Positions 1 to 31,098 are shown, counted from the stretch's first letter. The stretch is 64,000 nt of DNA from Betaproteobacteria bacterium (GCA_040006575.1 JBDTWS010000002.1:1380-65379), one strand, 5' to 3'. Notes: generated from the sequence alone by a model not told the origin. Translations and numbers: made by a program.

Positions 1-182
1 ACGGCGGGCCCGGATTCGCGCACGTGGCCGTAGGCTGTTTTGCGGCCTTCGCTAAATATGCCAAGCTCATTGAGCTTAAGAACAAAGGTTTGTGAGCCGC
101 TTGGCGCCGCCTCGCCGGATGCGCGCTGGTAAAATAGCCGATTAACGATTGATGCCGCCGAATGCGCGGCCCGGGATTTGTC

Positions 183-1253
183 ATGATCATCGTCACCGGC
201 GGCGCCGGATTTATCGGTTCTAATTTCATTCACGCCTGGCTGGCCGCAGGCCTGGGTCCAGTCGTCAACCTCGACAAGCTGACCTACGCGGGCAACCTCC
301 AGTCACTGGCGGATATCTCGCACCATCCCGACTATCGATTTGTCCACGCCGACATCGGTGATCGCACGCGCATTCACGCGCTGCTGCGGGAAGCGCGACC
401 GACCGCCATCCTCAATTTCGCTGCCGAAAGCCATGTGGATCGCTCAATTCACAGCGCCGGCGATTTCATCCAGACCAACATCGTCAGTACCTTCAACCTG
501 CTGGAGGAGGTGAGGGCGTATTGGGGAGAGCTTGCCGATAGCGAGAAGGCCGATTTTCGTTTCCTGCACGTGTCCACCGATGAGGTTTACGGCTCGCTGG
601 GTGCGGACGATGCGGCGTTCACGGAACAACACCGGTATGAGCCGAACAGCCCGTATTCAGCATCGAAGGCCGCGTCGGATCACCTGGTGCGCGCCTATCA
701 CCACACCTACCATTTGCCGGTGCTGACCACCAATTGTTCAAACAATTACGGGCCCTATCACTTCCCCGAAAAATTGATTCCGCTGGTGATCCTTAACGCG
801 CTGGCCGGCAAGCCGCTGCCGGTCTATGGCGACGGACAAAATGTACGCGACTGGCTGTATGTCAGCGATCATTGCGCGGCTATCCGCATGGTGCTGGCCG
901 GCGGAAAACCGGGTGAGACGTACAACGTGGGCGGGCGCAATGAGCGAACCAATCTTGAGGTGGTCAATGTGATTTGCACATTGCTCGATGAGCTGCAACC
1001 GCGTGTGGATGGCAAGCGTTATGCGGCGCAGATCACTTTCGTTGCCGATCGCCCGGGCCATGACCGCCGTTACGCGATCGACGCATCGCGCCTCGAGTCC
1101 GAGCTGGGCTGGCGCGCGCAGGAAAATTTCGAGAGCGGAATTCGCAAAACAGTCGAGTGGTACCTTGCCAACCCGGAATGGGTGCGGTCCGTGACGAGCG
1201 GCGATTACCGGCAGTGGATGCAGCAACAATATGGAACGAAGGCTGCGGCATGA
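183..1253 (+). CDS. rfbB: dTDP-glucose 4,6-dehydratase
   Basis: ORF 162..1253. The in-frame ATG at 183 gives [15 protein letters not shown] (Rossmann GxxGxxG). YSASKAASD supplies the SDR YxxxK motif. The ORF is RmlB-like along its whole length. Its stop overlaps the rfbA start (ATGA at 1250-1253). Confidence 0.95.
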
Positions 1254-2131
1254 AGCGCAAAGGAATCATCCTGGCTGGTGGCAGCGGCACGCGCCTGTAC
1301 CCGGTAACCCAAGTTGTTTCAAAACAACTGCTGCCGATTTACGACAAGCCGATGGTGTACTACCCGTTGTCCACCCTGATGCTCGCGGGCATACAGGACA
1401 TCCTGATCATCTCGACGCCGCACGATATGCCGCAATTCCAGGAATTGCTCGGTGATGGAAAGAAGTGGGGTCTTTCGCTTTCCTATGCGGTGCAGCCCTC
1501 GCCCGACGGACTCGCGCAGGCATTTCACATCGGCAAGGATTTTGTCGGCAACGCTGATTCAGCGCTGATACTGGGCGACAACATTTTCTATGGCCATGAC
1601 CTCTCCGTATCGCTGCAGCGTGCGCACGAAAAATCAACGGGCGCCACGGTGTTCGCCTATCCCGTCCATGATCCGGAACGCTATGGCGTCGCCGAATTCG
1701 ATGCCGCGGGCAAAGTCATTTCGCTGGAGGAAAAGCCGGCAAAGCCGAAATCGCGCTATGCGGTTACGGGCATTTATTTTTACGATAACCAGGTGTGTGA
1801 CCTCGCGCGTTCGTTGAAACCTTCCACGCGCGGCGAACTGGAAATCACCGACCTGAACCGTCTTTATCTCGAACAAGGTTCGCTGACCTGCGAGGTCATG
1901 GGACGCGGCATGGCGTGGCTGGATACCGGCACGCATGAGTCGCTGCTGGAAGCCTCGCAATACATCGCTACCATCGAGCGGCGCCAGGGCCTCAAGGTCG
2001 CGTGCCCCGAGGAAATCGCATTTCGCCAGGGTTGGATTTCAGCAGAGGACATCCAGGCGCTCGCCAAGCCCATGTTGAAAAACGGTTACGGGCAATACCT
2101 GATGCAGATGCTCGCTGAGCGCGTGTTCTAG
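1250..2131 (+). CDS. rfbA: glucose-1-phosphate thymidylyltransferase
   Basis: Internal ATG at 1250 of ORF 1157..2131 gives [18 protein letters not shown], the nucleotidyltransferase G-rich loop. Length (~293 aa) is typical of RmlA and the gene sits in an rfb operon. Confidence 0.95.
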
Positions 2132-2142
2132 GGTTACGTTGC

Positions 2143-2694
2143 ATGAATGTCATCGACACGGCGATCGCCGATGTAAAGATTCTTGAGCCCAAAGTGTTTG
2201 GCGATGAACGCGGTTTCTTTTTTGAAAGTTTCAACGAACAGAATTTTCGCAATGCAATCGGCACCGATGCTGTTTTTGTCCAGGACAATCATTCGAAGTC
2301 GGTCAAGGGCGTGTTGCGCGGCCTGCACTACCAGATCCAGCAGTCGCAGGGAAAATTGGTGAGGGTCGTCGCGGGCGAAGTGTTCGACGTGGCGGTGGAT
2401 ATTCGACGCAGTTCGCCCACATTTGGCCGGCATGTCGCCCTGCGCCTGTCGGCCGAAAACAAACGCATGCTCTGGGTTCCCGCCGGTTTTGCACACGGCT
2501 TCGTGGTGACGTCCGACAGCGCGGAATTCCTGTACAAAACCACGGACTACTACGCCCCGCAGCACGATCGCAGCCTGCTCTGGAACGACCCGGCGCTGGC
2601 CATCGACTGGCCGATCGCGGAAACAGGCACACCGCAACTCAAGCCCGCGGACATCAACGGCAAGCGGCTCGCCGAGGCTGAGCTGTTCGACTGA
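2143..2694 (+). CDS. rfbC: dTDP-4-dehydrorhamnose 3,5-epimerase
   Basis: 183 aa cupin with FGDERGFFFESF, RGLHYQ and GFAHGF motifs typical of RmlC. Confidence 0.95.
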   Translation: MNVIDTAIADVKILEPKVFGDERGFFFESFNEQNFRNAIGTDAVFVQDNHSKSVKGVLRGLHYQIQQSQGKLVRVVAGEVFDVAVDIRRSSPTFGRHVALRLSAENKRMLWVPAGFAHGFVVTSDSAEFLYKTTDYYAPQHDRSLLWNDPALAIDWPIAETGTPQLKPADINGKRLAEAELFD

Positions 2695-3614
2695 TGGGCA
2701 TTGCAGCAGACACGCCACGCATCTTGATCACGGGAGCCGATGGGCAGCTGGGTTGGGAGCTACAGCGTTCATTCGCATCGGAAGGCGAAATATTTGCCTT
2801 TGACCGTTCGGCGATGGACCTGTCATCACCCGACGCTATCCGTTCCCGTTGCCGTGAAATCCGGCCCACGCTGATCCTGAATGCGGGCGCATATACCGCC
2901 GTGGACAAGGCTGAGTCTGAGCCGGACATGGCCATGCGCATCAATGGTGAAGCGCCCGGAATACTTGCCGAAGAGGCGAACAAACTCAATGCCGTGCTGG
3001 TCCATTACTCAACCGATTATGTTTTCGACGGAACCGCAGGCTCGCCGTACCGGGAGACAGACACTACTGCACCGCAAAACGTTTACGGCCGAACCAAGCT
3101 CGCCGGTGAACAAGCCGTAAGCACAATGGCGAAGCGCTTTGCCACATTCCGCACGAGCTGGCTGTACGGAAACCGTCGTCACAATTTCATGCTCACCATG
3201 TTGCGTCTTGCGCGGGAGCGCGAAGAGCTGCGCGTGGTGGCCGATCAAACCGGTTCGCCAACCTGGGTGCGCGCTGTCGCCGAAGCGACACGAGAATGCG
3301 TGCAGTCAGGCGCGTTGCGCATTGAGCCGGGCATCTATCACCTCACTGCAAACGGCCAAACGACCTGGCACGGTTTTGCGACTGCGATCCTGGATGGGAC
3401 CGCCGGTGAGCCACGCCTCGCGCAGCGCGTGGTGGCCATCAACAGCGGTGAACTCGCGATGCCGGCCAAGCGACCGAGCTACTCGGTTTTGTCACTAAGC
3501 AAACTGGAACTTGCCCTGGGCCATGAAATGACTGACTGGCAAGAGCAACTGCGGCGGTGCATTGCGGAGAGAAAATCGATAGACTCCAGCACCGGGGCGG
3601 CTTCCGTGGCATAA
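2694..3614 (+). CDS. rfbD: dTDP-4-dehydrorhamnose reductase
   Basis: ILITGADGQLG Rossmann loop, STDYVFDG and YGRTKLAGE (YxxxK). The start overlaps the rfbC stop by 1 nt (TGATG). Confidence 0.9.
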   Translation: MGIAADTPRILITGADGQLGWELQRSFASEGEIFAFDRSAMDLSSPDAIRSRCREIRPTLILNAGAYTAVDKAESEPDMAMRINGEAPGILAEEANKLNAVLVHYSTDYVFDGTAGSPYRETDTTAPQNVYGRTKLAGEQAVSTMAKRFATFRTSWLYGNRRHNFMLTMLRLAREREELRVVADQTGSPTWVRAVAEATRECVQSGALRIEPGIYHLTANGQTTWHGFATAILDGTAGEPRLAQRVVAINSGELAMPAKRPSYSVLSLSKLELALGHEMTDWQEQLRRCIAERKSIDSSTGAASVA

Positions 3615-15931: not shown

Positions 15932-15962
15932 TTGATTGAAAAACGGTGTTGGCTGGTATAAA
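15932..15962 (+). promoter_or_regulatory. candidate sigma70 promoter for the 547-aa secreted protein gene
   Basis: TTGATT (15932-15937) and an extended -10 TGgTATAAA (15954-15962). The 19-nt spacing is non-ideal. The region is an AT-rich intergenic stretch. Visual match only. Confidence 0.25.
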
Positions 15963-16022
15963 CTTGATTTGTTGTAGCTTCTAAAGTGATCACTTTATTC
16001 TCTAAAAGGAGTAACCTAAAAA

Positions 16023-17723: not shown

Positions 17724-17864
17724 TCGTTTGAAGATGCAATCTGTATGCAAGAGTTTACATTCTTGGGTGGCCTCGCCTGCTAGCATCGGTTGCACTAATA
17801 AGAAAAAATATCTTCACTCTGCCGGGACCATTACGTGATTTATGTTGGACTTAAGAGGAACAAA

Positions 17865-19526
17865 ATGAATATTCAAAATTTAAAGATAGTGCTGGCATCA
17901 GCGCTACTCTCAATCTGTACTTTTAGCAGCGTGCAAGCGCAAACGGCCGTATCCATAAATGGCACAGTGTGCGCCGGCGCCACGATTGTTTTCGGTGCGG
18001 GTGGAATCAATGTGAACGCAGCCGCGAATTGCGTCGGCACGACGGGACAAGTTCCATCGATCAACAACAGCACGCCAGCGAACGCCGACCAAGGGGCCTT
18101 CTATAGCCATTCCTTCTCGGCTAACGGATCTACGCCACTTTCCTGGGCCGTTACAAGTGGCGCTCTACCTGCCGGAATGGGAATCAACGCAACAACGGGG
18201 GTCGTAAGCGGGACACCGACGACAATCCAGACATACTCATTTTCTGTAACAGCATCCAACACCTTCGGTACCAGTGCGCCGCTCTCGACGTCCATCAATG
18301 TTGTCGCCCCAAGTGGCCCGCCCGTATTTGGAAATTCTCCACCTACAACTGCCAGCATCGGCACAGCGTATAGTCATCAGTACACGGCAACCGGCGCCGC
18401 TCCCATTGCGTACTCCATAGTCTCTGGAGTTCCTCCATCTGGAATAACGTTGAGCCCCACAGGTCTGCTGGCGGGAGCGCCACTTGCAGGTGCGGTCACT
18501 TCAGCGTTTACAGTGCAAGCGTCGAATAGTGTTTCCACAACGACGCAAGCCGTCAACATCGCAATCATTGCTTTGGTGGGACCGACGATTACCAGCTTTG
18601 CACCGCCCGCGGGAACTGTGAATGCCGCCTACACGTACACATTTGCAGCGAGTGGTTCTGCACCAATTACGTGGGACAAGGCCACTGGCACATTGCCCCC
18701 TGGCTTGACGATCTCGGCAGCTGGAGTACTTAGCGGGACGCCCACGACAGCAGGTACTTACACCTTCACAGCAAGGGCCACAAATTCGGTAACAAATGCG
18801 GTGTCTGCGAACATTAGCATTACAATTTCCCCACCAATTAGCAGCGGTGGGTTCGGCTCAGCCGACATTAACGGCAACCCGATCCCAGCGCCAGTGTCAC
18901 GCGTAGCCAAAGCGATTCTGGCGCCTCACGCAGGACCTAACGGCGGTGGCGGACAAGGCGGGCTTGATGCCAATACAATCAATGCTTGGTCTGTCGATCC
19001 AACGGTATGCTCCAACGCGACACCCGGCATCAGCACACTGTGGTATCACAATGTTAGCCTGCTTGACTACGGCAGCCAATCCGCAATCGAATACTTTGAC
19101 TTCCAACCCAATCAGGCGATTACCTACGCATTTATGTCGCCACAACCCACGACAACCCAGGAAGCCGCAAACGGGCAGGTCGGACGTCTCTTTATCACGC
19201 AAGGTCCTAGCGGTACACCTGCATCTTCGTTTGTATCTGTGTCAACCTCTCCATGCGATTTTGATGTCACAAAGATCGCATCCGGAAACAAATGCTACGC
19301 AACCGGGTCAAACGAGAATGGCTTTACATTCCAGGTTACCGGCGGTGTTGGCGTTGGCACGGTGTGCAAAATGGCGCCGAACACCAAGTACTATTTGAAT
19401 ATTCGCTTCCAGGATGCGCGTCCCGCACCAACAGGAACACCAACGCTAGATGCATGTACGACGCAACTGTCGACGCGGCCGGGTTCAAGTACCTGCGGAG
19501 TATTGCTGCAAATCCAAACTTACTAA
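17865..19526 (+). CDS. secreted protein with three He_PIG (putative Ig) repeats and an unknown Cys-containing C-terminal domain
   Basis: ATG at 17865 preceded by SD AAGAGGA. Signal peptide MNIQNLKIVLASALLSICTFSSVQA|Q. The repeats carry the LPxGxxxxxxTGxxSGTPT signature. Confidence 0.8.
   Translation: MNIQNLKIVLASALLSICTFSSVQAQTAVSINGTVCAGATIVFGAGGINVNAAANCVGTTGQVPSINNSTPANADQGAFYSHSFSANGSTPLSWAVTSGALPAGMGINATTGVVSGTPTTIQTYSFSVTASNTFGTSAPLSTSINVVAPSGPPVFGNSPPTTASIGTAYSHQYTATGAAPIAYSIVSGVPPSGITLSPTGLLAGAPLAGAVTSAFTVQASNSVSTTTQAVNIAIIALVGPTITSFAPPAGTVNAAYTYTFAASGSAPITWDKATGTLPPGLTISAAGVLSGTPTTAGTYTFTARATNSVTNAVSANISITISPPISSGGFGSADINGNPIPAPVSRVAKAILAPHAGPNGGGGQGGLDANTINAWSVDPTVCSNATPGISTLWYHNVSLLDYGSQSAIEYFDFQPNQAITYAFMSPQPTTTQEAANGQVGRLFITQGPSGTPASSFVSVSTSPCDFDVTKIASGNKCYATGSNENGFTFQVTGGVGVGTVCKMAPNTKYYLNIRFQDARPAPTGTPTLDACTTQLSTRPGSSTCGVLLQIQTY
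18075..18836 (+). repeat. three tandem ~85-aa He_PIG-type Ig-like repeats (protein level)
   Basis: The repeat cores are YSHSFSANGSTPLSWAVTSGALPAGMGINATTGVVSGTPTT, YSHQYTATGAAPIAYSIVSGVPPSGITLSPTGLLAGAPL and YTYTFAASGSAPITWDKATGTLPPGLTISAAGVLSGTPTT. Confidence 0.75.
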
Positions 19527-19549: not shown

Positions 19550-19582
19550 CGCAGGCGGAATTTATTTCCGCCTGCGTTTTTT
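19550..19582 (+). terminator. rho-independent terminator
   Basis: CGCAGGCGGAAtttatTTCCGCCTGCGtttttt: 11-bp stem followed by a T6 tract. It ends 14 nt before the PPIase start codon. Confidence 0.75.
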
Positions 19583-19595: not shown

Positions 19596-20537
19596 ATGAA
19601 ACTCGCAAAAAAAATTCTGTTCCTCGCATTTACCACATTGCTGCCAATTGCCGCATATTCACAGACCCCCCTTCCCAGGGACAAGGTGCTCGCATCAAAC
19701 CCGCGCGCCACAGTGACATACGCTGATTTTGAAGCGGAGATGGCTCGCATTCCGCAAAGGGATCAATACGAATTCATGATGGACAAGGATCGCATCGCGA
19801 CCCTGGTCGACAATATTCTGATCAACAAGACACTGGCAATTGAGGCTCGCGAAAACAAGCTCGAAAACAATGTGCAGGCCCAGGCTGAAATTAGCAATCA
19901 CACTGACAAGGTGCTGGCTAAATATCGCGGCCTGCAAATCCAGAACTCCGCTCCAAAGATCGATTACCTGCCACGCGCCCGCGAAATATATCTCGCTAAC
20001 CCGGAGCGATTCACGTCTGCGCCGCTATATGACGTTTGGCATGTCCTGGTCAATTTCACCGGACGGACCAAGGAGCAGGCAAAAGTTCGGGCTGATGAAC
20101 TGCGCGCCAGACTCGTCGCTGGAGAGTCTCCCGAAAAAATAGCAGCCGAGAACTCGGACGATGGCTTCGCAAAAACCGACAAGGGCAATCTCGGACCTTC
20201 CGACCTGAAGACCTATGACGTGAGATTTGCCGCGGCCGTCCGTAAGCTGAAACCAGGTGAGTTTTCCCCGGTTTTTGAATCGGAGTTTGGGTTTCATGTC
20301 GCCAAGCTCCGCGCTTACAAAGCAGCGGTAAAGCTCCCGTTTGAAACGGTAAAAGCAGCGCTTATTAATGAGGCAGAGGACCAGTATCTCAACTCCGTTT
20401 GGGAAGCGCACCTGCGAAAGATCCGGAACGATCCCAAGCTTTTTGTAGACGTCGAAGCGCTTGAACAGTTGCGCCCGAAGGTCGCGCCCGTACCATCCGC
20501 CCTGCCGTTGCCCGGCGCGTCGCCAAAATCGAAGTGA
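19596..20537 (+). CDS. periplasmic parvulin-type peptidyl-prolyl cis-trans isomerase (SurA/PpiD/EpsD-like)
   Basis: Signal peptide MKLAKKILFLAFTTLLPIAAYS. PpiC/rotamase domain (VWHVLVNF...GNLGPSDL...FESEFGFHVAKL). Confidence 0.85.
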   Translation: MKLAKKILFLAFTTLLPIAAYSQTPLPRDKVLASNPRATVTYADFEAEMARIPQRDQYEFMMDKDRIATLVDNILINKTLAIEARENKLENNVQAQAEISNHTDKVLAKYRGLQIQNSAPKIDYLPRAREIYLANPERFTSAPLYDVWHVLVNFTGRTKEQAKVRADELRARLVAGESPEKIAAENSDDGFAKTDKGNLGPSDLKTYDVRFAAAVRKLKPGEFSPVFESEFGFHVAKLRAYKAAVKLPFETVKAALINEAEDQYLNSVWEAHLRKIRNDPKLFVDVEALEQLRPKVAPVPSALPLPGASPKSK

Positions 20538-20544
20538 CCCACAA

Positions 20545-21321
20545 TTGCTCGCAAAGGGAAACTCACTGCTGCTGGCGCGCTTCACCGAGCGTGAAATCTT
20601 CACGCGCTTCGCCGGCAGCACCCTAGGGTTTCTCTGGGCGCTGCTGGGCCCTTTGCTGCTGCTCGGAATCTATTCGTTCGTATTCGGTCAGTTATTCCAG
20701 CAACGCCAAGGTGACCTGGCCACGGACAGCTACACGCTTTTCGTAGCCATTGCACTCTGGCCGTGGATGATGTTTTCCGATGGCGTGCTGCGCTGCATGC
20801 AGAGTATCCACACCAACGCAGCGTTGGTGAAGAAAGTAGCATTTCCGCACTTGCTGCTCGTCCTTGCAGCCAATAACAGCGTGTTTCTAGTCCATCTGGC
20901 CGGCTACGTCGCCGTACTGGCGGTGCTGGCTCTTGCAGGTTCCAGCATCGATCTGGCCGGCATCCCCGTCGTCCTGATGTCAATCATCACGCTATACCTT
21001 TTCTCGCTTGCGTTGGGCGCGATACTCGCCGCCATGCAAACGCTGTTGAGGGATGTTGAACAGGCTATAGCGCCCGCAATGATGATGCTCTATTACCTGA
21101 CGCCAGTTTTGTATCCGATAACTTTGATTCCGATGCAATATCGCCACTGGCTAACCTGGAATCCATTGGCATACGTCATTCAGCGCATGCGTGATGGCCT
21201 TCTATTGGGACAAGGGTTGCAAATGGGTGACTTCGGCATGCTTTTCGCCGGCGTTGTCGCAGCGATCCTGGGCGTTGCATTCTTCATCCGACTCTCACCG
21301 TACTTCGAAGATTTCCTGTAG
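20545..21321 (+). CDS. wzm: ABC-2 type polysaccharide export permease
   Basis: Six hydrophobic segments. The N-terminus RFTEREIFTRFAGSTLGFLWALLGPLL is typical of Wzm/KpsM/TagG. The start is uncertain: TTG at 20545 avoids overlap with the PPIase gene, whereas the ORF track extends to 20461. Confidence 0.8.
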   Translation: MLAKGNSLLLARFTEREIFTRFAGSTLGFLWALLGPLLLLGIYSFVFGQLFQQRQGDLATDSYTLFVAIALWPWMMFSDGVLRCMQSIHTNAALVKKVAFPHLLLVLAANNSVFLVHLAGYVAVLAVLALAGSSIDLAGIPVVLMSIITLYLFSLALGAILAAMQTLLRDVEQAIAPAMMMLYYLTPVLYPITLIPMQYRHWLTWNPLAYVIQRMRDGLLLGQGLQMGDFGMLFAGVVAAILGVAFFIRLSPYFEDFL

Positions 21322-21470: not shown

Positions 21471-22691
21471 TTGTCAACCTCAACCACAGACAAACTTGTC
21501 CGGATAGTCGGCATCGGCAAGGACTATCCCATCATCCGTACCGGTTCCGGCCGGCTGCAAACGATATTTGAGCTGCTCAGCGGTCGCGCAGTCCATGAGT
21601 ACTACCGCGCGCTAAACGACGTCTCACTCACGATTGTGCGAGGAGAGTCGTGGGGCATCATCGGCGAAAACGGAGCGGGGAAATCGACGCTCATGAAAAT
21701 CATCGCGGGCGTCGTCAAGCCATCGCGAGGCACCGTCGAAGTGCGCGGTCGGATCAGCGCCTTGCTAGAACTGGGAACCGGCTTCCACCCTGAATATACC
21801 GGGCGCGACAATATATTCCTTGCCTCAGCCCTGATGGGTTGGAGCCGGGCAGAAACCAGCGCTCGCATTGAAGAAATTCTCGAGTTCGCCGATATCGGCA
21901 CGCACGTGGACCAGCCTGTGAAAACCTATTCCTCCGGGATGGTCGTGCGACTCGGATTTGCGGTCGCCACCGCGCTTACGCCGGAGCTGCTTGTTACCGA
22001 CGAAGTCCTCGCAGTGGGCGACGAATCGTTCCAGAAAAAATGCCTTCGATGGATGGAAAATTTCCGTGCGCGCGGCGGCACGCTGCTGCTGTGCTCACAC
22101 AGCATGTATCACATCCAGTCGCTTTGCCAGAACGCCATCTGGATCCATGAAGGTCGCGTTCACATGCAGGGCGAGTCTTTCGCCGTCACACAGGCATATC
22201 TCGCGTACCACGAAGCAAAGAATCGCCGAGAAGCTACTCCCGTCGCCAGCGAGCTCGCCCAAGGCTCACCCTATCCCATGCTGGAATCGGTCTGGGTGGA
22301 AGATGCCAACGTGGCGGAACGCAACATTTTTGAAATGGGTGAAAACATTTCACTGTGTGGAATTTTCACCAACCCGGATGACCAGGCCACAGTCATCATG
22401 ACTGGAATCACCCGAATGGATGGCACGCCCGTGTTCGGTACGTTTTCCAACGATGCCGGGTTTGCCGCCAATCGACTGTCGGCCGGCCGCTTTGGTTTCC
22501 GTTTAACCCTCGATGCGCAGACCCTGCTGCCGGGTGTGTACCAGCTTCGCGCGCACACGCTGGATGAACATGGTCTCCGTCTCTTCGATACGCGGGAAGT
22601 CCAGATCACGGTGAGTGGCAAGACTCGCGATCATGGCCTCGTTCGACTTTCACATCAATGGTGCCCAGGGCACGAACGCAAATCCGCATGA
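21471..22691 (+). CDS. wzt: polysaccharide export ABC ATPase with C-terminal glycan-binding-type domain
   Basis: Walker A GENGAGKSTL, signature YSSGM, Walker B LLVTDEVLAVGD. An extra ~150-aa beta-rich C-terminal domain (nt ~22233-22691) resembles Wzt_C. TTG start. Confidence 0.9.
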   Translation: MSTSTTDKLVRIVGIGKDYPIIRTGSGRLQTIFELLSGRAVHEYYRALNDVSLTIVRGESWGIIGENGAGKSTLMKIIAGVVKPSRGTVEVRGRISALLELGTGFHPEYTGRDNIFLASALMGWSRAETSARIEEILEFADIGTHVDQPVKTYSSGMVVRLGFAVATALTPELLVTDEVLAVGDESFQKKCLRWMENFRARGGTLLLCSHSMYHIQSLCQNAIWIHEGRVHMQGESFAVTQAYLAYHEAKNRREATPVASELAQGSPYPMLESVWVEDANVAERNIFEMGENISLCGIFTNPDDQATVIMTGITRMDGTPVFGTFSNDAGFAANRLSAGRFGFRLTLDAQTLLPGVYQLRAHTLDEHGLRLFDTREVQITVSGKTRDHGLVRLSHQWCPGHERKSA

Positions 22692-25600
22692 GCAGCAACC
22701 CGCTGACATTCGAACAAAAGCAACTCGCCAATGGCGCACTGGCACACCAGAATGCCGGACGCTACGCCGATGCAGCCCAGGCGTACGCGGCGCTGCTATC
22801 CCAGGTGCCACACCTGTGGCCAGCCTGTTACAACCTCGGGCTCGTATACCAGCATCTCGGCCGGCTACCCGAAGCAGCCGAAATGTACGCCCGTGCCGTA
22901 CAACTGAATCCCAATCTGGCCGAAGGCTACAACAACCTGGGAAACGTCCTCAAGTCGCTCAAGAACACGGATGCAGCCATCGAGGCCTATCGCCAGGCAC
23001 TCGCCCTTAATGCCGGGCTGTCGGAGGCCGCATATAACCTCGCGACAATGTTGCAGGCCGGCGGAGAACACCAGCAAGCCATCGACTCACTGCGACAGGC
23101 GACCGCCGTCAATCCCGCGCACGGAAATGCGTGGGATGCGCTATACCGGGGCCTCCTGGCCGGCGGGCGCACAGACGATGCGGTACTGGCATTCCTCGAA
23201 TGGGAAAAGTCGGCGGAACTGTCGCCGGAAATGGTCGTGGCGGGCCTGGCGCTATGCCGTCCGATGGGGGACACGGAACGGGAGACAAAATACGTCGAAC
23301 TCGCCCTGGCGTGGCCGTTTGCTGAATTCACGCCGGACCAGTACGCGCCGATCGTCGGCATGATCCAATACTTCGACGTCACGCGGGAATCCATCCTGCT
23401 GTGCTATCGCCGTTTCGACAGTGCCGTTAATGAACAGCATGTCCCGGTCGTGCCGTTGCTTCCGCGCCGTAGCGCGGATACTCGCTTGCGAGTGGGCTAC
23501 GTCTCAGGTGATTTCCGCCAGCATGTGATGGGACGCATGATGCTGGATGTCATCGCGCGACATGATCGCTCGCGTTTCGGCGTGCTTCTCATTTCAACTT
23601 GCGCACCGGCGCAGCACGATGCCACAACGACGCAGTTTCGCTCGATGGTCGACGGTTTTGCCGACATCAGCCACCTTGATGATTTTTCGGCCGCCAAAAT
23701 CATTGCCGAAGCAGACATCGACGTCCTGGTGGACCTGGGAGGTCAAACGAACAGCGCCCGCCCTGGCATCTACGCATACCGCCCCGCGCGATCCATCGTT
23801 ACGCACCTCGGCTATCACGGTTGCCTGGGAATGAGCTCGGTCGATTACAAATTTACCGACCGCATCGCCGATTTGCCCGATGCGGCAATTTTCCAGATCG
23901 AAAAACCCTACGCCCTTCAGTCCTGCATTTTTCCGTTTGTGCGTGTTCCACCATTGCGCCAGGCGCCCGAACTGGTGCCGGACAAAGACCTTGATGGAAA
24001 ATTTGTTTTTGCGGCGTTCCTGAATGTATTGAAACTCTCGCCGCGCTGCCTGCGCATGTGGCGGCGCGTACTGGATGCCGTGCCTGAAGCAATGCTCCTT
24101 TTTTCGCCGCTGGATGCGGCCGAGAAAAATTCAATTGCACGCGTTACCGACAGTGCCGGCATTGATGCAAACAGGATCGCCGTTCTTGAGCCAGTACGGG
24201 GCGATGCAGCACTGCGCTCACGCTATCGTATCGCCAACGCGGTGATGGATACATCGCCCTACGCTGGTGGCGACACCACACTGGCTGCGCTGGACATGGG
24301 CGTGCCGGTCGTTACGTTGGCCGGACAGCGGCAGAGCGAAAGGGTCGGCGCCAGCATTCTCGGCCACCTGAATTTGCAGGAACTGGTTGCCGCGTCCGAA
24401 GACGATTTCGTCGCACTCGCCGTGAAACTTGCACGCGACACGCAGTTCATGGAAGCGTGCCGGAAAAAAATCGCACAGGAATTCGAAACCGCACTAGCAA
24501 GGGCGGACGATCATACGCGCGCACTTGAGGCCGCCTTCATCGACATCGCGTCGCGTAGCCCGGTAACCGCATCGATGTCACTCACAGCACGACAGTTTTT
24601 CACCACGCTTCACGACGCCATGCGCCGCCAGGAAAAAGCGTCCGGCGATACTGAAAAACGTGCAATCGCGGCCGTATTTGCTGCGTTACGCGTCGAGCAA
24701 CCCGACTATCCGCCTTTGCTGCGAGCACAGGGGCAGCTCGCGCAAGACATGAGGGATCTTGCGCTGGCTTCCGACTGCCTTGGCACGCTGCTCAAGTATT
24801 TGCCGGGAGATGTCGACACACGTCTCACGCTGGCCGGATTCCTGATCGACCGGGGAAACGCAAAAGATGCACTGGACATCCTCGAGGATGCATCCACCGT
24901 GGGCAGCAATGTTCGTAGCCTGCTGCTGCAGACACGCGCATACAGCCAGTTGCGGCAATGGGAGAGTGCACTCAAATGCAGTGAACCCGCAATTGCCCTG
25001 GAACCTGCAAATACCCAGGCACTGTTCTGGCACGGCACCGTTCTCTCGCACGTTGGCGAAGTCAATGCCGCACTCACTTACCTGAACCAGGCGCTCATTC
25101 TTGCGCCATCTCATACCGACGTGGCCTCTGCGGCTTACAACGCAGGTGTCCTGCTAAGCGAATCAGGAAACCACGTCGATGCAGAAAAAGTATTCCGTCG
25201 TGCGATGGCCGCCGACCCATCGCCGCCTGTACAGCTGCGACTGCTGCAAACCCTCAACATGCAAAAGCGCCATGACGATTGGCTCGTTGAAGCGCAGCGG
25301 TTTGTCGCGGCATTTCCAGGCCTGGAATACGCGACGCTGCTGGAAAGCCGGATTGCCCGGCGCCAGGGCAACCTGAAACGCGAGGCGGAACTTCTCTATC
25401 CGCTGGCCGAGCAGGTAGCGCAGATGAAAGATGATGTGACCGCATTCGAGCTGGCTGCTGAATTATCCGGTCTCCTGCCGTTTCACGATGTTTCACCCCG
25501 CTTGTTGGACCGGTTGCAGGACAGATTTGCCAGTGCGTCAAAAGCGCTGCACCCAGCGCGCGCCGATGTAGCGAGGGCGAACACCGTCCCGGAACGCGAG

Positions 25601-26707
25601 AAGACCCGGCTGGGATATCTGGTTGACCTGAGCATTCCCTTTGCGCAAGAAACCATCGCGTCGCTCGTGCGGCTGCACGATCGTGATCTATTTACCACTG
25701 CGGTTTTCACCGTAAGCCCGCCACACGTAAAAATGATGCCGGACGCTGGAATAGAGGCAACGGACTGGGTGTCGTTGGCAGGGCTCGATGAAGATCGTTG
25801 CGCAGTCGCGATCGGGGCGCACAAAATTGACGTCTTGATTGACGCGTCCGCTTTTGGCGACTTCTCCAGGCCCGGTCTGCTGTCTCTTCGCCCGGCGCTA
25901 TTGCAAATCGCGATGCCGGCGATGGCCAGGCCTGCCGCCATCGGCGAACATGATTTCGTGCTGACGGATCGGCACTTGCAACTGGTGAGCGACAAAGCCG
26001 AATCGCTGCGCCGAAACTTGTTCGTCGAAGGGTGCGCCCTGCCAATCTCTGCACCGGCGCAGGGTGACAGCGATGCACAATCGAATTTATCGACCAGGGA
26101 ATCACTCGGCATCAAAGCGGGTGCCACGGTATTCGGCGTGCTCGCCACCGCAGAGCAACTGTCTTCCCGCTGTGTGGCGCTGTGGCAATCACTGCTCGCG
26201 CGCGCCCCAAACGCGGTGCTATTGCTGGCGCCGCCAGATACCGGGGACGTCGCGATCATGCGAAATATTCTGCGGACAGCCGGGATAGACGCAGCGCGGA
26301 TCATCTCGCACCCCTACAGCAACGGTGCAGCGACGCGAGCCCCGGGCCTGGTGGATATCATCCTCGACACGGTTCCCGGCAGTGATTATTCAAGTGTGCG
26401 GGCATCGTTGCTGGAATCCATTCCCCTTGTTACCGCGGCGGGGAAAACCATCGCAGAGCGCGTTGCACTCAGTGTCCTCACCAGCCTTGGAGAAAAATCC
26501 ACCATTGCCGAGAGTGGCCGCGAATACGTCGACATTGCGGTGGACCTCGCAACACATGCCGACAAACGAAACGCGCTGGCGTCAAGGCTGAACTCCCTGT
26601 GGTCGGCCGCATCTCAACCCGGCATGCCCTTCGCCATGGACGCTTACGTGAAGCGCATCGAAGCCGCGATCAGCCACGCGGCCAATTTGAATTCCATGCA
26701 GCAGTGA
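22688..26707 (+). CDS. two-module TPR + GT41 (OGT/SPINDLY-like) glycosyltransferase protein
   Basis: ATG at 22688 overlaps the wzt stop (ATGA). It has a TPR block, a GT41-like module (RLRVGYVSGDFRQHV; DTSPYAGGDTTLAALDMGVPVVTLAG), a second TPR block, and a second, degenerate GT41-like module. Confidence 0.8.
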   Translation: MSSNPLTFEQKQLANGALAHQNAGRYADAAQAYAALLSQVPHLWPACYNLGLVYQHLGRLPEAAEMYARAVQLNPNLAEGYNNLGNVLKSLKNTDAAIEAYRQALALNAGLSEAAYNLATMLQAGGEHQQAIDSLRQATAVNPAHGNAWDALYRGLLAGGRTDDAVLAFLEWEKSAELSPEMVVAGLALCRPMGDTERETKYVELALAWPFAEFTPDQYAPIVGMIQYFDVTRESILLCYRRFDSAVNEQHVPVVPLLPRRSADTRLRVGYVSGDFRQHVMGRMMLDVIARHDRSRFGVLLISTCAPAQHDATTTQFRSMVDGFADISHLDDFSAAKIIAEADIDVLVDLGGQTNSARPGIYAYRPARSIVTHLGYHGCLGMSSVDYKFTDRIADLPDAAIFQIEKPYALQSCIFPFVRVPPLRQAPELVPDKDLDGKFVFAAFLNVLKLSPRCLRMWRRVLDAVPEAMLLFSPLDAAEKNSIARVTDSAGIDANRIAVLEPVRGDAALRSRYRIANAVMDTSPYAGGDTTLAALDMGVPVVTLAGQRQSERVGASILGHLNLQELVAASEDDFVALAVKLARDTQFMEACRKKIAQEFETALARADDHTRALEAAFIDIASRSPVTASMSLTARQFFTTLHDAMRRQEKASGDTEKRAIAAVFAALRVEQPDYPPLLRAQGQLAQDMRDLALASDCLGTLLKYLPGDVDTRLTLAGFLIDRGNAKDALDILEDASTVGSNVRSLLLQTRAYSQLRQWESALKCSEPAIALEPANTQALFWHGTVLSHVGEVNAALTYLNQALILAPSHTDVASAAYNAGVLLSESGNHVDAEKVFRRAMAADPSPPVQLRLLQTLNMQKRHDDWLVEAQRFVAAFPGLEYATLLESRIARRQGNLKREAELLYPLAEQVAQMKDDVTAFELAAELSGLLPFHDVSPRLLDRLQDRFASASKALHPARADVARANTVPEREKTRLGYLVDLSIPFAQETIASLVRLHDRDLFTTAVFTVSPPHVKMMPDAGIEATDWVSLAGLDEDRCAVAIGAHKIDVLIDASAFGDFSRPGLLSLRPALLQIAMPAMARPAAIGEHDFVLTDRHLQLVSDKAESLRRNLFVEGCALPISAPAQGDSDAQSNLSTRESLGIKAGATVFGVLATAEQLSSRCVALWQSLLARAPNAVLLLAPPDTGDVAIMRNILRTAGIDAARIISHPYSNGAATRAPGLVDIILDTVPGSDYSSVRASLLESIPLVTAAGKTIAERVALSVLTSLGEKSTIAESGREYVDIAVDLATHADKRNALASRLNSLWSAASQPGMPFAMDAYVKRIEAAISHAANLNSMQQ

Positions 26708-26714: not shown

Positions 26715-28916
26715 ATGACGCTTCAGCAGGCAGTGGCATCGCTCCAGGCCGGGAATGTCGACAACGCGTTGGCGCAGTTGACGACGCTCGCATCGCAACC
26801 CGCGGCGCCCGTGGAAACCTTCAGCTGGCTGGCTATCGCAAACGTACGTGCGCAACGATTACCGGACGCGGCACGCGCCATCCAGCGTGCTATTGCACTG
26901 GCGCCGGGCAATGCAAATTTCTACCTCACTGCCGCCAATATCCAGCAGGACCTGGGCGATCTTTCATCTGCGGTCGACTTGCTCACACAGTCGATTCGCG
27001 TAGACCCTGCCTTCGCGCAGGGTCACAACAATCTTGGCATCGTCCTCACCGATCTCGGCCGCATTGAAGAAGCAATACCGGCTTTCCGGGAAGCCATCCG
27101 GCTCAATCCTGCGTATGCGCGAGCGTACGCAAACCTGGCTGCTGCACAAGTGCGATCGCTACAGTTTGCAGACGCATTGTCATCTGCACAACGCGCCACC
27201 GAGCTGCAACCCGACTACGCACACGCACACCACCTCCTGGGCAATGCGCTGGTGATGACTGGAAATACCGCCGCTGCAGAGGCCGCGCTCAGGACCGCTA
27301 TCCGGCTGAGGCCCGACTTCGCGGAGGCTTCATTGTTGCTCGTCAAGACACTTACAAAACTGAAGCGCGCCGACGAAGCGGAGCAGGTGTGCCGACAGGC
27401 GTTGTCGCTGACGCCGGGACGGCATGATCTTTGGGCTGCACTGGGTGATATAGCGGCCGAACGCGACGACCTTGCCGAAGCGTTGGGCGCCTACCAGCGC
27501 GCGCTTGAATTGCGTCCGAATGACCTGTCCACCACGACGCGCGCCGCACTGCTGTTGCCCAACATCTACATCAATGAAGCGCACGTCGATGCATGCCGTG
27601 ACCGCATCACCCAAGGCATTGCGCACCTTCACGCCAACGTGGAGGCGCTGACCAAATCGTTTCAGCCGCAGCGCTTCGGCGACGCTATCGCGAATAGTTT
27701 CCTGCTGGCCTACCAGGGACGTGACGACAAGCTGTTGCAACGCGACTACGCCGACTTTGTAGCCAAGGTCGCGGCCCATGCGTTGCCCATGGAAAGTCGG
27801 GCGTCGTTGCACAGCGCCACACAGCGCGCACCTCGCATCCGCATCGGGTTCTGCAGCCGTTTTTTCTATCGCAGCACAGCGGGAAATTACTTCGCCAGCT
27901 GGATCACCGACCTTGATCGCAGCATCTTCGAAATTTTCCTGTATCACTCGCATATTGTTGACGACGATCTCACACGCCGCTTGCGCGGTGCGTCCGACCA
28001 TTTTTTCCAGGCCGAGGAAAATTTTTCCGTGTTGCTGGGGCAGATCCGCAACGACGAACTCGATATCCTGGTCTATCCCGAGATCGGCATGGACAGGACG
28101 GTTTACCTGCTGTCGAGCATGCGACTGGCGCCGGTACAAGTGTGCGGCTGGGGCCATCCCGTGACGCCGGGCCACCGCGCCATCGATTACTATTTTTCCT
28201 GCGAAGCCATGGAGCCGGCGGGTGCGCAGGCACATTACAACGAACAGTTGCGACTGCTGCCCGGCATCGGTACGCGCTATGAGCGCCCGCAGATTTCGCC
28301 GGAAGCATCAGCCAAGACGCGGGCCGATTACCAGCTGCCCGAAGATGCCACGCTGTACCTTTTTCCCCAGTCATTGTTCAAGGTACATCCGGCCAATGAC
28401 CGCCTGCTGGTCACGGCAATTGCCAACGATCCGCGCGGCGTGCTGGTGATGTTCGCCGGGCAGAACGCTGCCGTCACGCAAAAATTCGTCACGCGACTTT
28501 CAGCCGCCTTCGCCGAGTTGGGCCTTGCGGCTCAGGGCCGCGTGAAAATCCTGCCCGGCGTGGGGCACGATGATTACAAACGCATCAACCAGCTGTGCGA
28601 TCTCATGCTGGATACGCTGCACTGGTCAGGCGGCAATACTTCGCTGGATGCGCTTGCAATGGGCCTGCCCATCGTGACGCTGCCGGGTGCTTATATGCGC
28701 GGGCGCCAGACCATGGCGATGCTTAAGCTGATGGGCATCGAAGAACTGATTGCGCAGTCGCCGGAAGAATACCTGGCCATCGCGCTCCGCCTGGGAACTG
28801 ACCGGGAATATCACAATGATATTTCGCGGCGCATCCTGCAGCGTGCTGATCGAATATTCGATGACCCCGAACCCCCGCAAGCGTTGGGCCGGTTACTCGC
28901 TGAACTGCTGCGTTAG
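26715..28916 (+). CDS. TPR + GT41 (OGT/SPINDLY-like) glycosyltransferase
   Basis: ~8 TPRs followed by a GT41-like domain. The stretch MLDTLHWSGGNTSLDALAMGLPIVTLPGAYMRGRQTMAMLKLMGIEELIAQSPEEYLAIALRLGTDREY aligns by eye to the C-terminal catalytic lobe of human OGT. Confidence 0.8.
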   Translation: MTLQQAVASLQAGNVDNALAQLTTLASQPAAPVETFSWLAIANVRAQRLPDAARAIQRAIALAPGNANFYLTAANIQQDLGDLSSAVDLLTQSIRVDPAFAQGHNNLGIVLTDLGRIEEAIPAFREAIRLNPAYARAYANLAAAQVRSLQFADALSSAQRATELQPDYAHAHHLLGNALVMTGNTAAAEAALRTAIRLRPDFAEASLLLVKTLTKLKRADEAEQVCRQALSLTPGRHDLWAALGDIAAERDDLAEALGAYQRALELRPNDLSTTTRAALLLPNIYINEAHVDACRDRITQGIAHLHANVEALTKSFQPQRFGDAIANSFLLAYQGRDDKLLQRDYADFVAKVAAHALPMESRASLHSATQRAPRIRIGFCSRFFYRSTAGNYFASWITDLDRSIFEIFLYHSHIVDDDLTRRLRGASDHFFQAEENFSVLLGQIRNDELDILVYPEIGMDRTVYLLSSMRLAPVQVCGWGHPVTPGHRAIDYYFSCEAMEPAGAQAHYNEQLRLLPGIGTRYERPQISPEASAKTRADYQLPEDATLYLFPQSLFKVHPANDRLLVTAIANDPRGVLVMFAGQNAAVTQKFVTRLSAAFAELGLAAQGRVKILPGVGHDDYKRINQLCDLMLDTLHWSGGNTSLDALAMGLPIVTLPGAYMRGRQTMAMLKLMGIEELIAQSPEEYLAIALRLGTDREYHNDISRRILQRADRIFDDPEPPQALGRLLAELLR

Positions 28917-28920: not shown

Positions 28921-30078
28921 TTATTTTCGCAATTGCGCGAGGTAAAATTCTTTCAGCAGGCCGTACAGGCGCTCCGCAGAAAACCGGGCTTCAATGCGTT
29001 GGCGCGCCGCTGCCCCCATGTCCTTGGCACGCTGCGGATTCTCCAGCAGGGCTTGCATCGCGTTGACCAGTTCGTCCACCGCGCCCGCAGCGAATAGCAC
29101 GCCGGTCTTGCCGTCCTCGATGGAATCCACCAGTCCCACAATGCGTGAGCCGATAGCAGGAACGCCGGATGCCGCGGCATCGATCACGATCGAACCGAAT
29201 CCTTCACGGAAACTGGGCAGGCACAACACGTCGGTGACCGCGAGATACGCTTCATGGTCTACCACGCGCTCGACCTCGATCACACGTTCGAAAAGCTGTG
29301 GCGAACGCGCTTTCAACGCCAACAATTCGCCTGCGGACTCGTCGGGGCCGACGAACAACAGTCGCGCCCGCGGATGTGATGCGGCCAGTGGTGCAAACGC
29401 CCGCACCATGTCGAGTGCACCCTTATCGCGGCTCTTGCGCGCGATAAAAGCAAAAACAAAATCTTGTTCACCAAGCCCAAATTTCTTGCGCAGGCGTTCG
29501 ACCACCAATGGGTCACGTGGAAAAGAAAATCGCGTCAAGTCCACGCCCGACAGCGAACCCTCGCCGAGGACAGGCAGGGCTTTCGCGTCATGTGCGAAAC
29601 CGTGCTCAAGGAGAAATTCGGATTGCGACCGGCTGTCGGTCAGGCAGACGCTGTTCAGCGCATTGATCAACCTGTCGAGCCCATAAAGCAGGAAGCCGCC
29701 GACGGGATGCTGGTTGACCCAGGTCTGCCCCGTAAATGTGTGCATGCGGACGGGCACCCTGGCGGCAAAGCCGGCGAAGGCAGCGAGCAAACCCGCCTTG
29801 GGCATGATCGAATGAACAACATCGGGCCGGTTCTTTTGAAAAAAGCGATATAACGCCCACAGTGACGACACATCCGCGAGCGGGCTGAACTTGCGGTTCA
29901 GGTTGATATCCACCCACTGCACGCCGGGATAGTTTTCACGATTGGTCGAAACATCCTGGCCGATAACGGTCACCTCAAAATCATCGGTCATGCGCAGCAG
30001 CGTGTTGTGAAGATGCCACGGCACCACATAGGAGGCGGTGACCACGCGAACGATCTGGGGTTTGCGATTATTCTCCAC
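28921..30078 (-). CDS. glycosyltransferase family 4 (GT-B)
   Basis: C-terminal EGFGSIVIDAAASGVPAIGS (E-x7-E-type GT4 motif). The likely GTG start at 30078 overlaps the upstream epimerase stop. The ORF track extension to 30204 would overlap that gene. Confidence 0.85.
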   Translation of the reverse strand: MENNRKPQIVRVVTASYVVPWHLHNTLLRMTDDFEVTVIGQDVSTNRENYPGVQWVDINLNRKFSPLADVSSLWALYRFFQKNRPDVVHSIMPKAGLLAAFAGFAARVPVRMHTFTGQTWVNQHPVGGFLLYGLDRLINALNSVCLTDSRSQSEFLLEHGFAHDAKALPVLGEGSLSGVDLTRFSFPRDPLVVERLRKKFGLGEQDFVFAFIARKSRDKGALDMVRAFAPLAASHPRARLLFVGPDESAGELLALKARSPQLFERVIEVERVVDHEAYLAVTDVLCLPSFREGFGSIVIDAAASGVPAIGSRIVGLVDSIEDGKTGVLFAAGAVDELVNAMQALLENPQRAKDMGAAARQRIEARFSAERLYGLLKEFYLAQLRK

Positions 30079-31057
30079 GGGACAATCCAGTGCGCCATTG
30101 ATGTACGAGTTCAGCGATGCCGTTCTCCATGCTGGTCCTGTTCTTGAAGCCCAGCTCTGTTTCGATCCTGCCTGTGCGGTAGATCGTTGGATCAGTGAGC
30201 GCATCGATACGCGACGCAGTCAGCGGAAATCCTGGAACGATACCGCCCAACAGTGCCGCAAGCCGGGCCAACGACTCCGGAACGGTGACACGTGGCGGCG
30301 CCTTCTCCAATGCGCCGGAAATGATGCCGACGAAATCACGCAATCTTCGGAAGTCCGAGACGATATAGGCCTTCGCGTTGCCGGGCAGGTTTGCTGTTCC
30401 GCAATGCGCCAGCGCGTCCACTACATTGTCGACGTGCACGTAGTTCGCGACGGCGTCTTTCGCATTGCCTTTTGAGCCGATAAAAAAGAACATTCCCCTG
30501 TCGATCATCCGGATCAGCTGGAACAGAGACTGATTGGACATGTCTGTGCCGTACACATTTGAGGGGCGCACGATAACGCATGACAGGTTGTGCCGCCCGG
30601 CAAAATCGACAACTTGCCGGTCCGCCGCTTCCTTGGAAATTTCATATGCATTTTCAGGATGTACCGTCGTTTCCTCAGTGACTTCAAAAGACGTTTGCGT
30701 GTCCTGTCCGTTACGTGCGCGACGCCCATACACGCCAGTGCTGCTCAACTGAACCCAGCGCCCAACGTTGCCCTGTGCAGCCGCGAGCAAATTTTCCGTA
30801 CCGCGCAGATTGGTGTCGTGCATTTTTTTTTCATCACGCAACTCTGCGGCGCAGTGATACACGATGTCTGCACCTTCGACGAACTCGCGAAGTGACACCG
30901 AGGGCAACGCGAGGTCGCCGGTAAATGTGCGGATACCCGGCGCGCTGGCGGTCGGCTGGCCGCGCGAGAGTACACGAACCGTATCTCCCCTGTTGACGTG
31001 ATGGGCAAGCAGGCGTTTGCCGATAAATCCCGTGCCACCGGTTACGGCGACGATCAC
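30068..31057 (-). CDS. NAD-dependent epimerase/dehydratase (extended SDR)
   Basis: MIVAVTGGTGFIGKRL Rossmann loop; YEISK (YxxxK). Confidence 0.85.
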   Translation of the reverse strand: MIVAVTGGTGFIGKRLLAHHVNRGDTVRVLSRGQPTASAPGIRTFTGDLALPSVSLREFVEGADIVYHCAAELRDEKKMHDTNLRGTENLLAAAQGNVGRWVQLSSTGVYGRRARNGQDTQTSFEVTEETTVHPENAYEISKEAADRQVVDFAGRHNLSCVIVRPSNVYGTDMSNQSLFQLIRMIDRGMFFFIGSKGNAKDAVANYVHVDNVVDALAHCGTANLPGNAKAYIVSDFRRLRDFVGIISGALEKAPPRVTVPESLARLAALLGGIVPGFPLTASRIDALTDPTIYRTGRIETELGFKNRTSMENGIAELVHQWRTGLSRGE

Positions 31058-31098
31058 GATTTCAATCCGGTGTTTATTACGCGGCTACGCATGAACGC

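Follow-up and report, generated by a model that had tools for sequence, protein, structure and literature searches.

A tandem TPR-GT41 protein with one apparently inactive catalytic module, coupled to a Wzm/Wzt-type exporter in Betaproteobacteria

Glycosyltransferases of family GT41, among them OGT, SPINDLY (SPY), XcOGT, the Thermobaculum OGT and HMW1C/NGT, are built from an N-terminal superhelix of tetratricopeptide repeats (TPRs) followed by a GT-B domain, and the family is regarded as purely protein-modifying; thousands of bacterial TPR-GT41 genes have no known function. Here we describe GT41x2, a protein of 1339 amino acids (aa) encoded within a 64,000-nucleotide (nt) stretch of DNA from a Betaproteobacteria bacterium (GCA_040006575.1 JBDTWS010000002.1:1380-65379), referred to below as the window. 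Like the known GT41 enzymes, it places TPRs before a GT-B domain, and its first catalytic module keeps their His, Lys and Thr-Thr phosphate loop; unlike them, it fuses two TPR-GT41 units, the second without the His and the Lys, and it is translationally coupled to the ATPase of an O-antigen-type exporter, whereas none of the known enzymes is linked to the export of lipid-linked glycans. An earlier reading of the window from its sequence (the original prediction) had called such coupling unexpected, and we indeed found no paper tying GT41, OGT-like or SPINDLY-family enzymes to wzm/wzt or to O-polysaccharide assembly. The GT41 fold and family and pseudo-glycosyltransferase partners are already known; what is new here is the fusion of a predicted active with a predicted dead GT41 module, the conserved translational coupling to Wzt and the way in which loss of catalysis goes with the structure of the operon.

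On the export side, the closest described systems are the prototypes of O-polysaccharide assembly dependent on ATP-binding cassette (ABC) transporters, namely WbdD/WbdA, WbbB and the Klebsiella pneumoniae O4 ORF7 and O7 ORF6 proteins, in which assembly is performed by complexes of single- or multi-module glycosyltransferase (GT) or terminator proteins, one of them with a spacer (PMC11231755). Systems whose Wzt has a carbohydrate-binding module export terminated glycans only, and in K. pneumoniae O4 the terminator protein includes a TPR-like bundle (PMC11231755). GT41x2 resembles these proteins in being large and multi-domain and in adjoining wzm/wzt, and the likeness extends to the methyltransferases and dual-GT enzymes encoded in the operons of relatives and perhaps to the C-terminus of Wzt, which resembles a carbohydrate-binding domain (CBD). 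It departs from them in that its modules are GT41 and not GT1/2/4/99/137, one of them apparently a pseudo-enzyme, in carrying TPR arrays in place of a coiled coil, and in that a ruler or terminator role is only proposed.

An active enzyme paired with a dead relative is familiar from the O-GlcNAc transferase pair GtfA/GtfB, in which an active GT-B enzyme works with a dead paralogue kept for substrate binding or activation; these are separate GT4-type polypeptides that act on serine-rich repeat adhesins and are linked to an accessory Sec system in Gram-positive bacteria. GT41x2 would share the active/dead pairing, but here the partners are fused, of GT41 type and linked to Wzm/Wzt. A further parallel comes from Aeromonas, whose A-layer is tethered via O-polysaccharide. 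The wb(salmo)/A-layer cluster of Aeromonas salmonicida combines rml genes, wzm, a dedicated type II secretion system (T2SS) with vapA, wzt and a gene for the large multidomain WbbB, and its secreted protein of ~50 kDa is the A-layer subunit VapA (PMC4483657). The window likewise holds rml genes, wzm/wzt, a T2SS operon, a gene for a secreted protein and a large multidomain GT near wzt; in Aeromonas, however, the T2SS and vapA sit between wzm and wzt and the large enzyme is WbbB-like, not GT41, while the window has in addition a peptidyl-prolyl isomerase (PPIase) and an Ig-repeat protein. Tethering through O-polysaccharide would explain why T2SS, cargo and exporter stay together with no protein glycosylation required.

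Two GT41 modules in one protein

The GT41x2 gene runs from the ATG at 22688-22690 to 26707 on the + strand, the strand of all features below unless stated otherwise, and its product lacks a signal peptide and is predicted to be cytoplasmic. When the two halves were scanned separately with the Pfam profile Glyco_transf_41 (PF13844, gathering cutoff 25 bits), both scored well above the cutoff, module 1 at 151.1 bits (E 4.4e-44, aa 231-640) and module 2 at 78 bits (E 6e-22, aa 901-1339), and TPR families matched at aa ~17-170 and ~680-880, bearing out the TPR, GT41, TPR, GT41 order and the module coordinates of the original prediction. The parts are TPR1, with three OGT-like repeats (aa ~10-180, 22715..23227); module 1 (aa ~262-600, 23471..24487); TPR2, a helical repeat array (aa ~677-900, 24716..25387) recognised from Pfam TPR matches within aa 641-900 and from the structural model; and module 2 (aa ~971-1310, 25598..26617). 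NCBIfam offered no specific family for the protein, only TPR noise. In a sequence search of the PDB, Arabidopsis SPY was the top match of both modules (5.6e-48 for module 1, 1.1e-17 for module 2), followed by the Thermobaculum OGT homologue, animal OGTs and Xanthomonas XcOGT. An AlphaFold2 (AF2) model of aa 140-1339, built with 28 homologues, has a mean pLDDT (per-residue confidence) of 87.7 and contains two GT-B domains with helical repeats before each, those of TPR2 forming continuous helix pairs. The 50 best PDB matches listed by Foldseek were all GT41 proteins, including SPY at E 4e-27, and the model superposes on T. terrenum OGT (TM 0.80) and XcOGT (TM 0.75-0.82), with TM scores of 0.75-0.82 over the two. 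A predicted TM score (pTM) of 0.61 makes the placement of the domains relative to one another unreliable.

The two modules differ in the state of their catalytic residues. In module 1, H279 aligns with SPY H495 (OGT H498) and K449 with SPY K665 (OGT K842), the donor-phosphate lysine, while G527-G528-D529-T530-T531 falls at the phosphate-binding loop (OGT T921-T922; the TTT motif of SPY); these columns are invariant both in 21 and in 28 homologues, and module 1 is predicted to be active. The SPY and OGT alignments place P984 at the His position of module 2, Q1157 at the Lys position and S1235-S1236 at Thr-Thr, and across the clade the first is occupied by P, T, S, R, N or E and the second by R, Q, H, L, E, D or A. 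All the motifs that the original prediction had quoted for either module were located in the translation, where DFRQHV spans residues 275-280, LNVLKLS 445-451, GGDTT 527-531, DLSIPFAQ 980-987 and SDYSS 1232-1236. Its case for a degenerate module 2 stands, and for more than this one sequence, as the His is missing throughout the window's branch. The change of Thr-Thr to Ser-Ser is conservative and weak alone, and the replacement of Lys by Gln1157, judged from the alignments to be the most diagnostic loss in module 2, had gone unlisted.

Module 1 is the most conserved and module 2 the fastest-evolving part of the protein, with 91 of 339 columns at least 90% conserved in the former and 27 in the latter, and with 73% and 47% identity, respectively, to the nearest relative. 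The reading frame of module 2 is nonetheless intact and its length conserved, and in the AF2 model most of its 10-residue blocks have a pLDDT of 83-96, with several low-confidence loops. Because the module is in frame, of kept length and mostly modelled with confidence, a retained pseudo-enzyme fits these data and a decaying remnant does not. With its fold kept, its catalytic residues lost and conserved columns remaining, module 2 has the hallmarks of a pseudo-glycosyltransferase, and from alignment and model together we take it to be catalytically dead with the GT-B fold retained.

GT41x2 belongs to a family of tandem proteins of ~1320-1350 residues found in Betaproteobacteria, with members in Usitatibacteraceae, other Burkholderiales metagenome-assembled genomes (MAGs), Candidatus Nitrotoga, Gallionella, Sulfuricellaceae and Sterolibacterium. 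It spans over 100 clusters, at identities down to ~31%. The Nitrotoga/Gallionella/Sulfuricellaceae branch keeps Asp-His-Lys in both modules. In two intact proteins, P0096 of Nitrotoga and P0061 of an uncultured betaproteobacterium, modules 1 and 2 are 51-55% identical, and the tandem is therefore the product of a TPR-GT41 unit that was duplicated within the gene; the two modules of the window protein are 24% identical. Throughout the window's branch the His and the Lys of module 2 are both lost, and the replacements differ between sub-branches.

Coupling to wzt across loci

The start codon of GT41x2 shares bases with the TGA stop of wzt at 22689-22691 (junction sequence CGCATGAGC), so the ATGA overlap described in the original prediction is present. 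Such an overlap fits coupled translation and gives no 1:1 ratio, however, and the accompanying claim that the protein is made stoichiometrically with the exporter ATPase does not follow. An alternative in-frame ATG at 22658 (open reading frame, ORF, listed as 22658..26707) would add 10 aa; we prefer 22688 because homologues begin at the wzt stop or at most 3 nt from it. Overlapping junctions (ATGA/GTGA) or junctions with a 2-nt gap (TGAnnATG) occur in ~18 of the species loci listed, and in a few further loci GT41x2 starts no more than 20 nt from the wzt stop.

The coupled gene, wzt (21471..22691), encodes an ABC ATPase of 406 aa (ABC_tran, 81 bits) with a CBD-like C-terminal extension, and wzm (20461..21321) encodes the ABC-2 permease (ABC2_membrane); NCBIfam matches of the pair are to KpsM and Wzm, for the permease, and to TagH and Wzt. 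The best PDB matches of Wzt are to the O-antigen Wzt of Aquifex aeolicus (8dku/7k2t, E 1.4e-59), in an alignment of query residues 10-359 of 406 with chain residues 3-346 of 404 that passes the nucleotide-binding domain and covers ~110 residues of the Aquifex carbohydrate-binding domain. The Wzt tail is 41-69% identical across loci. The first gene of the operon encodes a parvulin-type periplasmic PPIase (19596..20537; Rotamase families, signal peptide); the listed TTG start of wzm overlaps it by 77 nt, and the true wzm start probably lies downstream. At the other end, 7 nt downstream of GT41x2, begins ORF3 (26715..28916), a single TPR-GT41 protein of 733 aa and the third TPR-GT41 unit of the operon (PF13844, 107 bits; PDB matches to T. 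terrenum OGT at 6.5e-29 and to HMW1C at 3e-16), in which the Lys (K556) and a GGNTS motif are kept and the His is lost.

Gene order was surveyed with one genome per species in 80 loci, each including as much as 10 kb of flanking sequence per side; ORFs were called and compared with the window proteins, and denominators are the loci with enough flank to show the gene in question. In this survey wzt lies upstream in 26 of 40 tandem-GT41 loci vs 3 of 23 single-module GT41 controls. Among the loci with a dead module 2, which come from about twenty uncultured species, wzt immediately precedes GT41x2 in 20/20, and the other genes seen are wzm (19/19), a PPIase gene upstream of wzm (18/19), sec547, a gene for a secreted protein described below (14/15), the secretin gene gspD (9/12) and an ORF3-type GT41 (18/18). 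The corresponding counts are 6/20, 6/20, 5/20, 1/16, 2/14 and 20/21 where module 2 is intact, and, beyond the 3/23 for wzt, 3/21, 3/20, 2/19, 1/15 and 5/22 for the controls; an ORF3-type GT41 thus stands beside the tandem gene in 38 of 39 loci. The conserved operon is PPIase-wzm-wzt-GT41x2-GT41, usually placed after a T2SS operon and the genes of two secreted proteins. The loci are all from Betaproteobacteria that are related to each other, for the most part MAGs, and a small number of evolutionary events may therefore lie behind the 20/20 coupling; still, coupling to wzt persists down to 33-38% GT41x2 identity and through rearrangements and gene insertions.

Where module 2 is intact and wzt is linked, the operon opens with genes for a secreted protein of PKD or NHL type, PPIase, Wzm and Wzt and continues with those for one methyltransferase or a pair, in some cases an acetyltransferase, a dual GT2+GT4 enzyme of ~750 residues, GT41x2 and GT41. 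The methyltransferase, the GT2+GT4 enzyme and GT41x2 remain together even without wzm/wzt nearby, as in locus L088, where they lie convergent to a T2SS of the same subtype as that of the window and wzm/wzt are absent within 10 kb. In locus L084, where the only GTs beside the exporter are GT41s, a third GT41 gene ends the block and a restriction-modification system comes next. Since the lipopolysaccharide (LPS)-core genes that follow the block in the window recur only in its three closest relatives, and L084 differs downstream, the conserved unit is the block itself.

A proposed role in surface-glycan assembly and its alternatives

The reading that we prefer, at a probability of about 0.5, is that GT41x2 serves as a large multi-module glycosyltransferase or scaffold of an ABC-transporter-dependent surface-glycan pathway and that, together with ORF3, it builds, decorates or caps a lipid-linked glycan exported by Wzm/Wzt. 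We favor it because the genes that stay with the tandem GT41 belong to glycan pathways, namely wzm, wzt with its CBD-like tail, methyltransferases and the GT2+GT4 enzyme, and on gene context a polysaccharide GT, the outcome that the original prediction had named as a refutation, is more likely than a protein GT. The wider window is in keeping with this, with rmlBACD upstream and genes for MsbA, a heptosyltransferase, a Wzy_C protein, GT4 and GT2 downstream. In such a pathway the five genes for PPIase, Wzm, Wzt, GT41x2 and the single GT41 would be co-transcribed, with translation of GT41x2 coupled to termination of wzt, and at the inner membrane face module 1 (His279, Lys449, Thr530-Thr531) and the single GT41 would add sugars from nucleotide donors to the lipid-linked glycan, whether to extend, decorate or cap it. 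The two TPR arrays would hold the complex together and perhaps space its active sites, as the coiled coils of WbdD and WbbB do, while module 2, without catalysis, would act as a scaffold or ligand-binding domain. The C-terminal domain of Wzt would recognize the completed chain, and after export by Wzm/Wzt the chain would be joined to lipid A-core or would serve T2SS-secreted surface proteins in the manner of the Aeromonas A-layer O-antigen. The absence from one branch of the methyltransferases, the GT2+GT4 enzyme and module 2 catalysis would then represent a simplification of the glycan.

A broader version, which we offer as speculation and consider rather unlikely in its entirety, is that the whole ~20-kb block, comprising the T2SS and its pilotin-like lipoprotein, sec547, the Ig-repeat protein, the periplasmic PPIase, Wzm/Wzt and the GT41 enzymes, forms a single machine with which uncultured Betaproteobacteria of soil and freshwater build a protein surface layer anchored or decorated by glycan, with GT41 acting on a lipid-linked glycan, TPRs replacing the ruler and the dead module serving as a scaffold for glycan or partner. 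Should the surface-glycan reading be correct, it would widen the acceptor range of GT41 to a first non-protein acceptor, extend ABC-transporter-dependent glycan assembly by a new type of module and by TPRs as an alternative to coiled-coil rulers, and provide a natural enzyme/pseudo-enzyme fusion in which catalytic loss tracks operon change.

Several observations weigh against a glycan acceptor. Every characterized GT41 (OGT, SPY, HMW1C/NGT) glycosylates proteins (PMC3983070), and the same is predicted for the GT41s of flagellin glycosylation islands (PMC3983070, PMC4875605); because these islands also carry methyltransferase and rml genes along with their GT41s (PMC4875605), such genes are not specific to polysaccharide pathways. 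The nearest solved relatives of GT41x2 are SPY and OGT, and the position-6 Asn residues in three repeats of TPR1 (N49, N83 and N117, at 34-residue spacing and 90-95% conserved in 21 homologues) match the geometry of the Asn ladder with which OGT binds peptide backbones; TPR2 has no such ladder, its sole conserved position-6 Asn being N818. The Pfam family Wzt_C matches Wzt at 25.4 bits (E 1.5e-5), below its cutoff of 30.4. No coiled-coil ruler was found in GT41x2, the helices of the AF2 model being short and paired (~9-20 residues) with no long helix among them, and the remaining operon proteins are PPIase, Wzm, Wzt and a TPR-GT41. Among the scanned ORFs of the window we found no initiating polyprenyl-phosphate transferase of the WecA or WbaP type, a function often encoded elsewhere. 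Lastly, in the Nitrotoga, Gallionella and Sulfuricellaceae loci, which are arranged GT41-GT41x2-GT41, wzm/wzt are absent within 10 kb; those of Nitrotoga are accompanied by a methyltransferase and a GT2-like gene.

Much of this would be accommodated if GT41x2 and ORF3 were instead cytoplasmic protein glycosyltransferases and Wzm/Wzt exported a glycan made by other enzymes, a possibility that we take seriously but doubt. The active module 1 would then work with its dead paralogous module as GtfA does with GtfB on serine-rich adhesins, and candidate acceptors would be sec547 and the Ig-repeat protein, both before their Sec export, or the T2SS pseudopilins. Membership of GT41 in both sequence and fold, the conserved Asn ladder of TPR1, the T2SS operon and Ser/Thr-rich secreted proteins conserved nearby and the Nitrotoga-type loci with no exporter within 10 kb are all in keeping with this, and there are precedents in the Synechococcus Ogt that is required for glycosylation of the pilin PilA (10.1101/2021.07.06.449578), pilin machinery being akin to the T2SS, and in HMW1C, which glycosylates a Sec-exported adhesin (PMC3983070). 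The genetic arrangement argues otherwise: GT41x2 is coupled to wzt, whereas no candidate acceptor gene is coupled to it, and a strong intrinsic terminator-like hairpin at 19550-19576 (11-bp stem with 8 GC pairs, T6 tail) parts the sec547/He_PIG unit from the PPIase-wzm-wzt-GT41 operon, although the scan that gave it returned overall no more sites than in shuffled sequence. In relatives, wzt and GT41x2 are separated by polysaccharide-type GT2+GT4 and methyltransferase genes, and the exporter of L084 would be left without a glycosyltransferase partner in the block. Nor do the proposed substrates look the part, as NxS/T sequons are not enriched in sec547 (4 vs 7.5 expected) or in the He_PIG protein (8 vs 7.9 expected), and the Ig-type neighbor varies between loci (He_PIG, TIG, PKD or NHL) and would make a poor fixed acceptor. 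The original prediction had put forward the sec547 product (its ORF 16023) and the He_PIG protein, implying an obligatory protein acceptor; the sequon counts, the separate transcription unit and the glycan-gene context speak against that part of it. If the acceptor were nevertheless a protein, the locus would represent a new system for glycosylation in the cytoplasm, linked to a T2SS of its own.

We consider it improbable that the position beside wzt is simply inherited gene order without shared function in one betaproteobacterial lineage, GT41x2 and ORF3 glycosylating a cytoplasmic target that has nothing to do with the exporter, for instance as a means of regulation. The relatedness of the loci, the existence of tandem proteins without wzm/wzt and the presence of several GT41 paralogues in the window genome are compatible with this idea, but the start-stop overlap is maintained, coupling survives at 33-38% identity despite rearrangements and insertions, and all 20 loci with a degenerate module 2 have it coupled directly to wzt. 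Least probable is that the whole of GT41x2 is non-catalytic in this clade, a TPR/GT-B scaffold or nucleotide-sugar sensor that tunes export or chain length while ORF3 or other enzymes transfer sugar, since the degenerate module 2, the extensive TPR arrays and a pTM that suggests a flexible multi-domain body are set against a module 1 that keeps every tested catalytic and donor-binding position invariant within the most conserved region of the protein.

Neighboring genes in the window and in related loci

Upstream of the operon, rmlB-rmlA-rmlC-rmlD (162..3614; NCBIfam equivalogs above cutoffs) encode dTDP-L-rhamnose synthesis and are a possible source of donor sugar for the surface glycan. They are followed by the T2SS operon, gspE to gspD (3871-15282; profile matches), in which the N-terminus of GspE (3871-5646) bears an MshEN-type c-di-GMP-binding motif (NF053729, 39 bits) and GspM is of the XpsM/T2SSM_b type and GspL PilM/PilN-like; a T2SS of this subtype adjoins the tandem GT41 in many other loci, in one of them in convergent orientation. 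Directly after the secretin gene, a position that is conserved, lies the gene for a small lipoprotein of 136 aa (15447-15857) with a lipobox-like ...TAGC motif, a candidate T2SS pilotin.

The next two genes encode the secreted proteins sec547 (16023-17666; signal peptide, no family match) and the He_PIG Ig-repeat protein (17835-19526; signal peptide, He_PIG domains), which are Ser/Thr-rich, are co-conserved neighbors of the operon by synteny and are candidates for T2SS cargo or surface-layer proteins. A promoter-like site from the scan mentioned above lies at 15936-15964, upstream of sec547. The sec547 protein is 20% Ser+Thr, has ~4000 homologues in databases, none of them named or assigned to a Pfam family, and surpasses its neighbors in conservation, at 88% identity to the nearest relative vs 62% for GT41x2; a paralogue exists outside the block. 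Searches of Pfam, NCBIfam and PDB sequences and a Foldseek search with an AF2 model (pTM 0.85) gave no match for it below E 1e-3, the best match being a galectin-like sandwich at 7.6e-3. In size, composition and gene context sec547 is reminiscent of the Aeromonas S-layer protein VapA.

Downstream of ORF3, a run of genes on the − strand (28921-36467) encodes a GT4, an epimerase-like short-chain dehydrogenase/reductase, a GT2, an FkbM methyltransferase, MsbA and a heptosyltransferase, and is followed by a gene for a Wzy_C (ligase-type) protein (37343-38695) that is conserved in the closest relatives only. An origin of the block in LPS O-antigen diversity was considered and rejected, as the GT4, epimerase, GT2, MsbA, GT9 and WaaL genes follow it only in L004, L012 and L024. 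Just downstream of the LPS-core genes, 39515-43129 encodes a tricorn-type protease of 1204 aa with PD40 repeats, Tricorn C1/PDZ and S41 domains.

The window contains a second glycosylation island at 51228-61413, with a GC content of 52-54% vs ~59% elsewhere. It begins with a fourth TPR-GT41 gene (51228-54227), whose 999-aa product has a SEC-C motif at aa 9-26, many TPRs and a GT41 match of 49 bits, and continues with genes for a DegT aminotransferase, WbqC, three SAM methyltransferases and two GH32N-like ORFs of ~340 aa. Additional GT41 genes occur in related loci: L005, L009/L084, L013 and L015 (~16.2-18.0 kb) carry, behind the ORF3-type gene, an extra GT41 of ~580 residues without TPRs and with W-C-K at the Asp/His/Lys positions, a gene that is not in the window. 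In Nitrotoga locus L001, a membrane-anchored protein of 988 aa with a large extracytoplasmic domain, which has no Pfam family in the precomputed annotation, is encoded upstream of GT41-GT41x2-GT41 (3269-6235), accompanied by an ORF of 181 aa with no assigned function.

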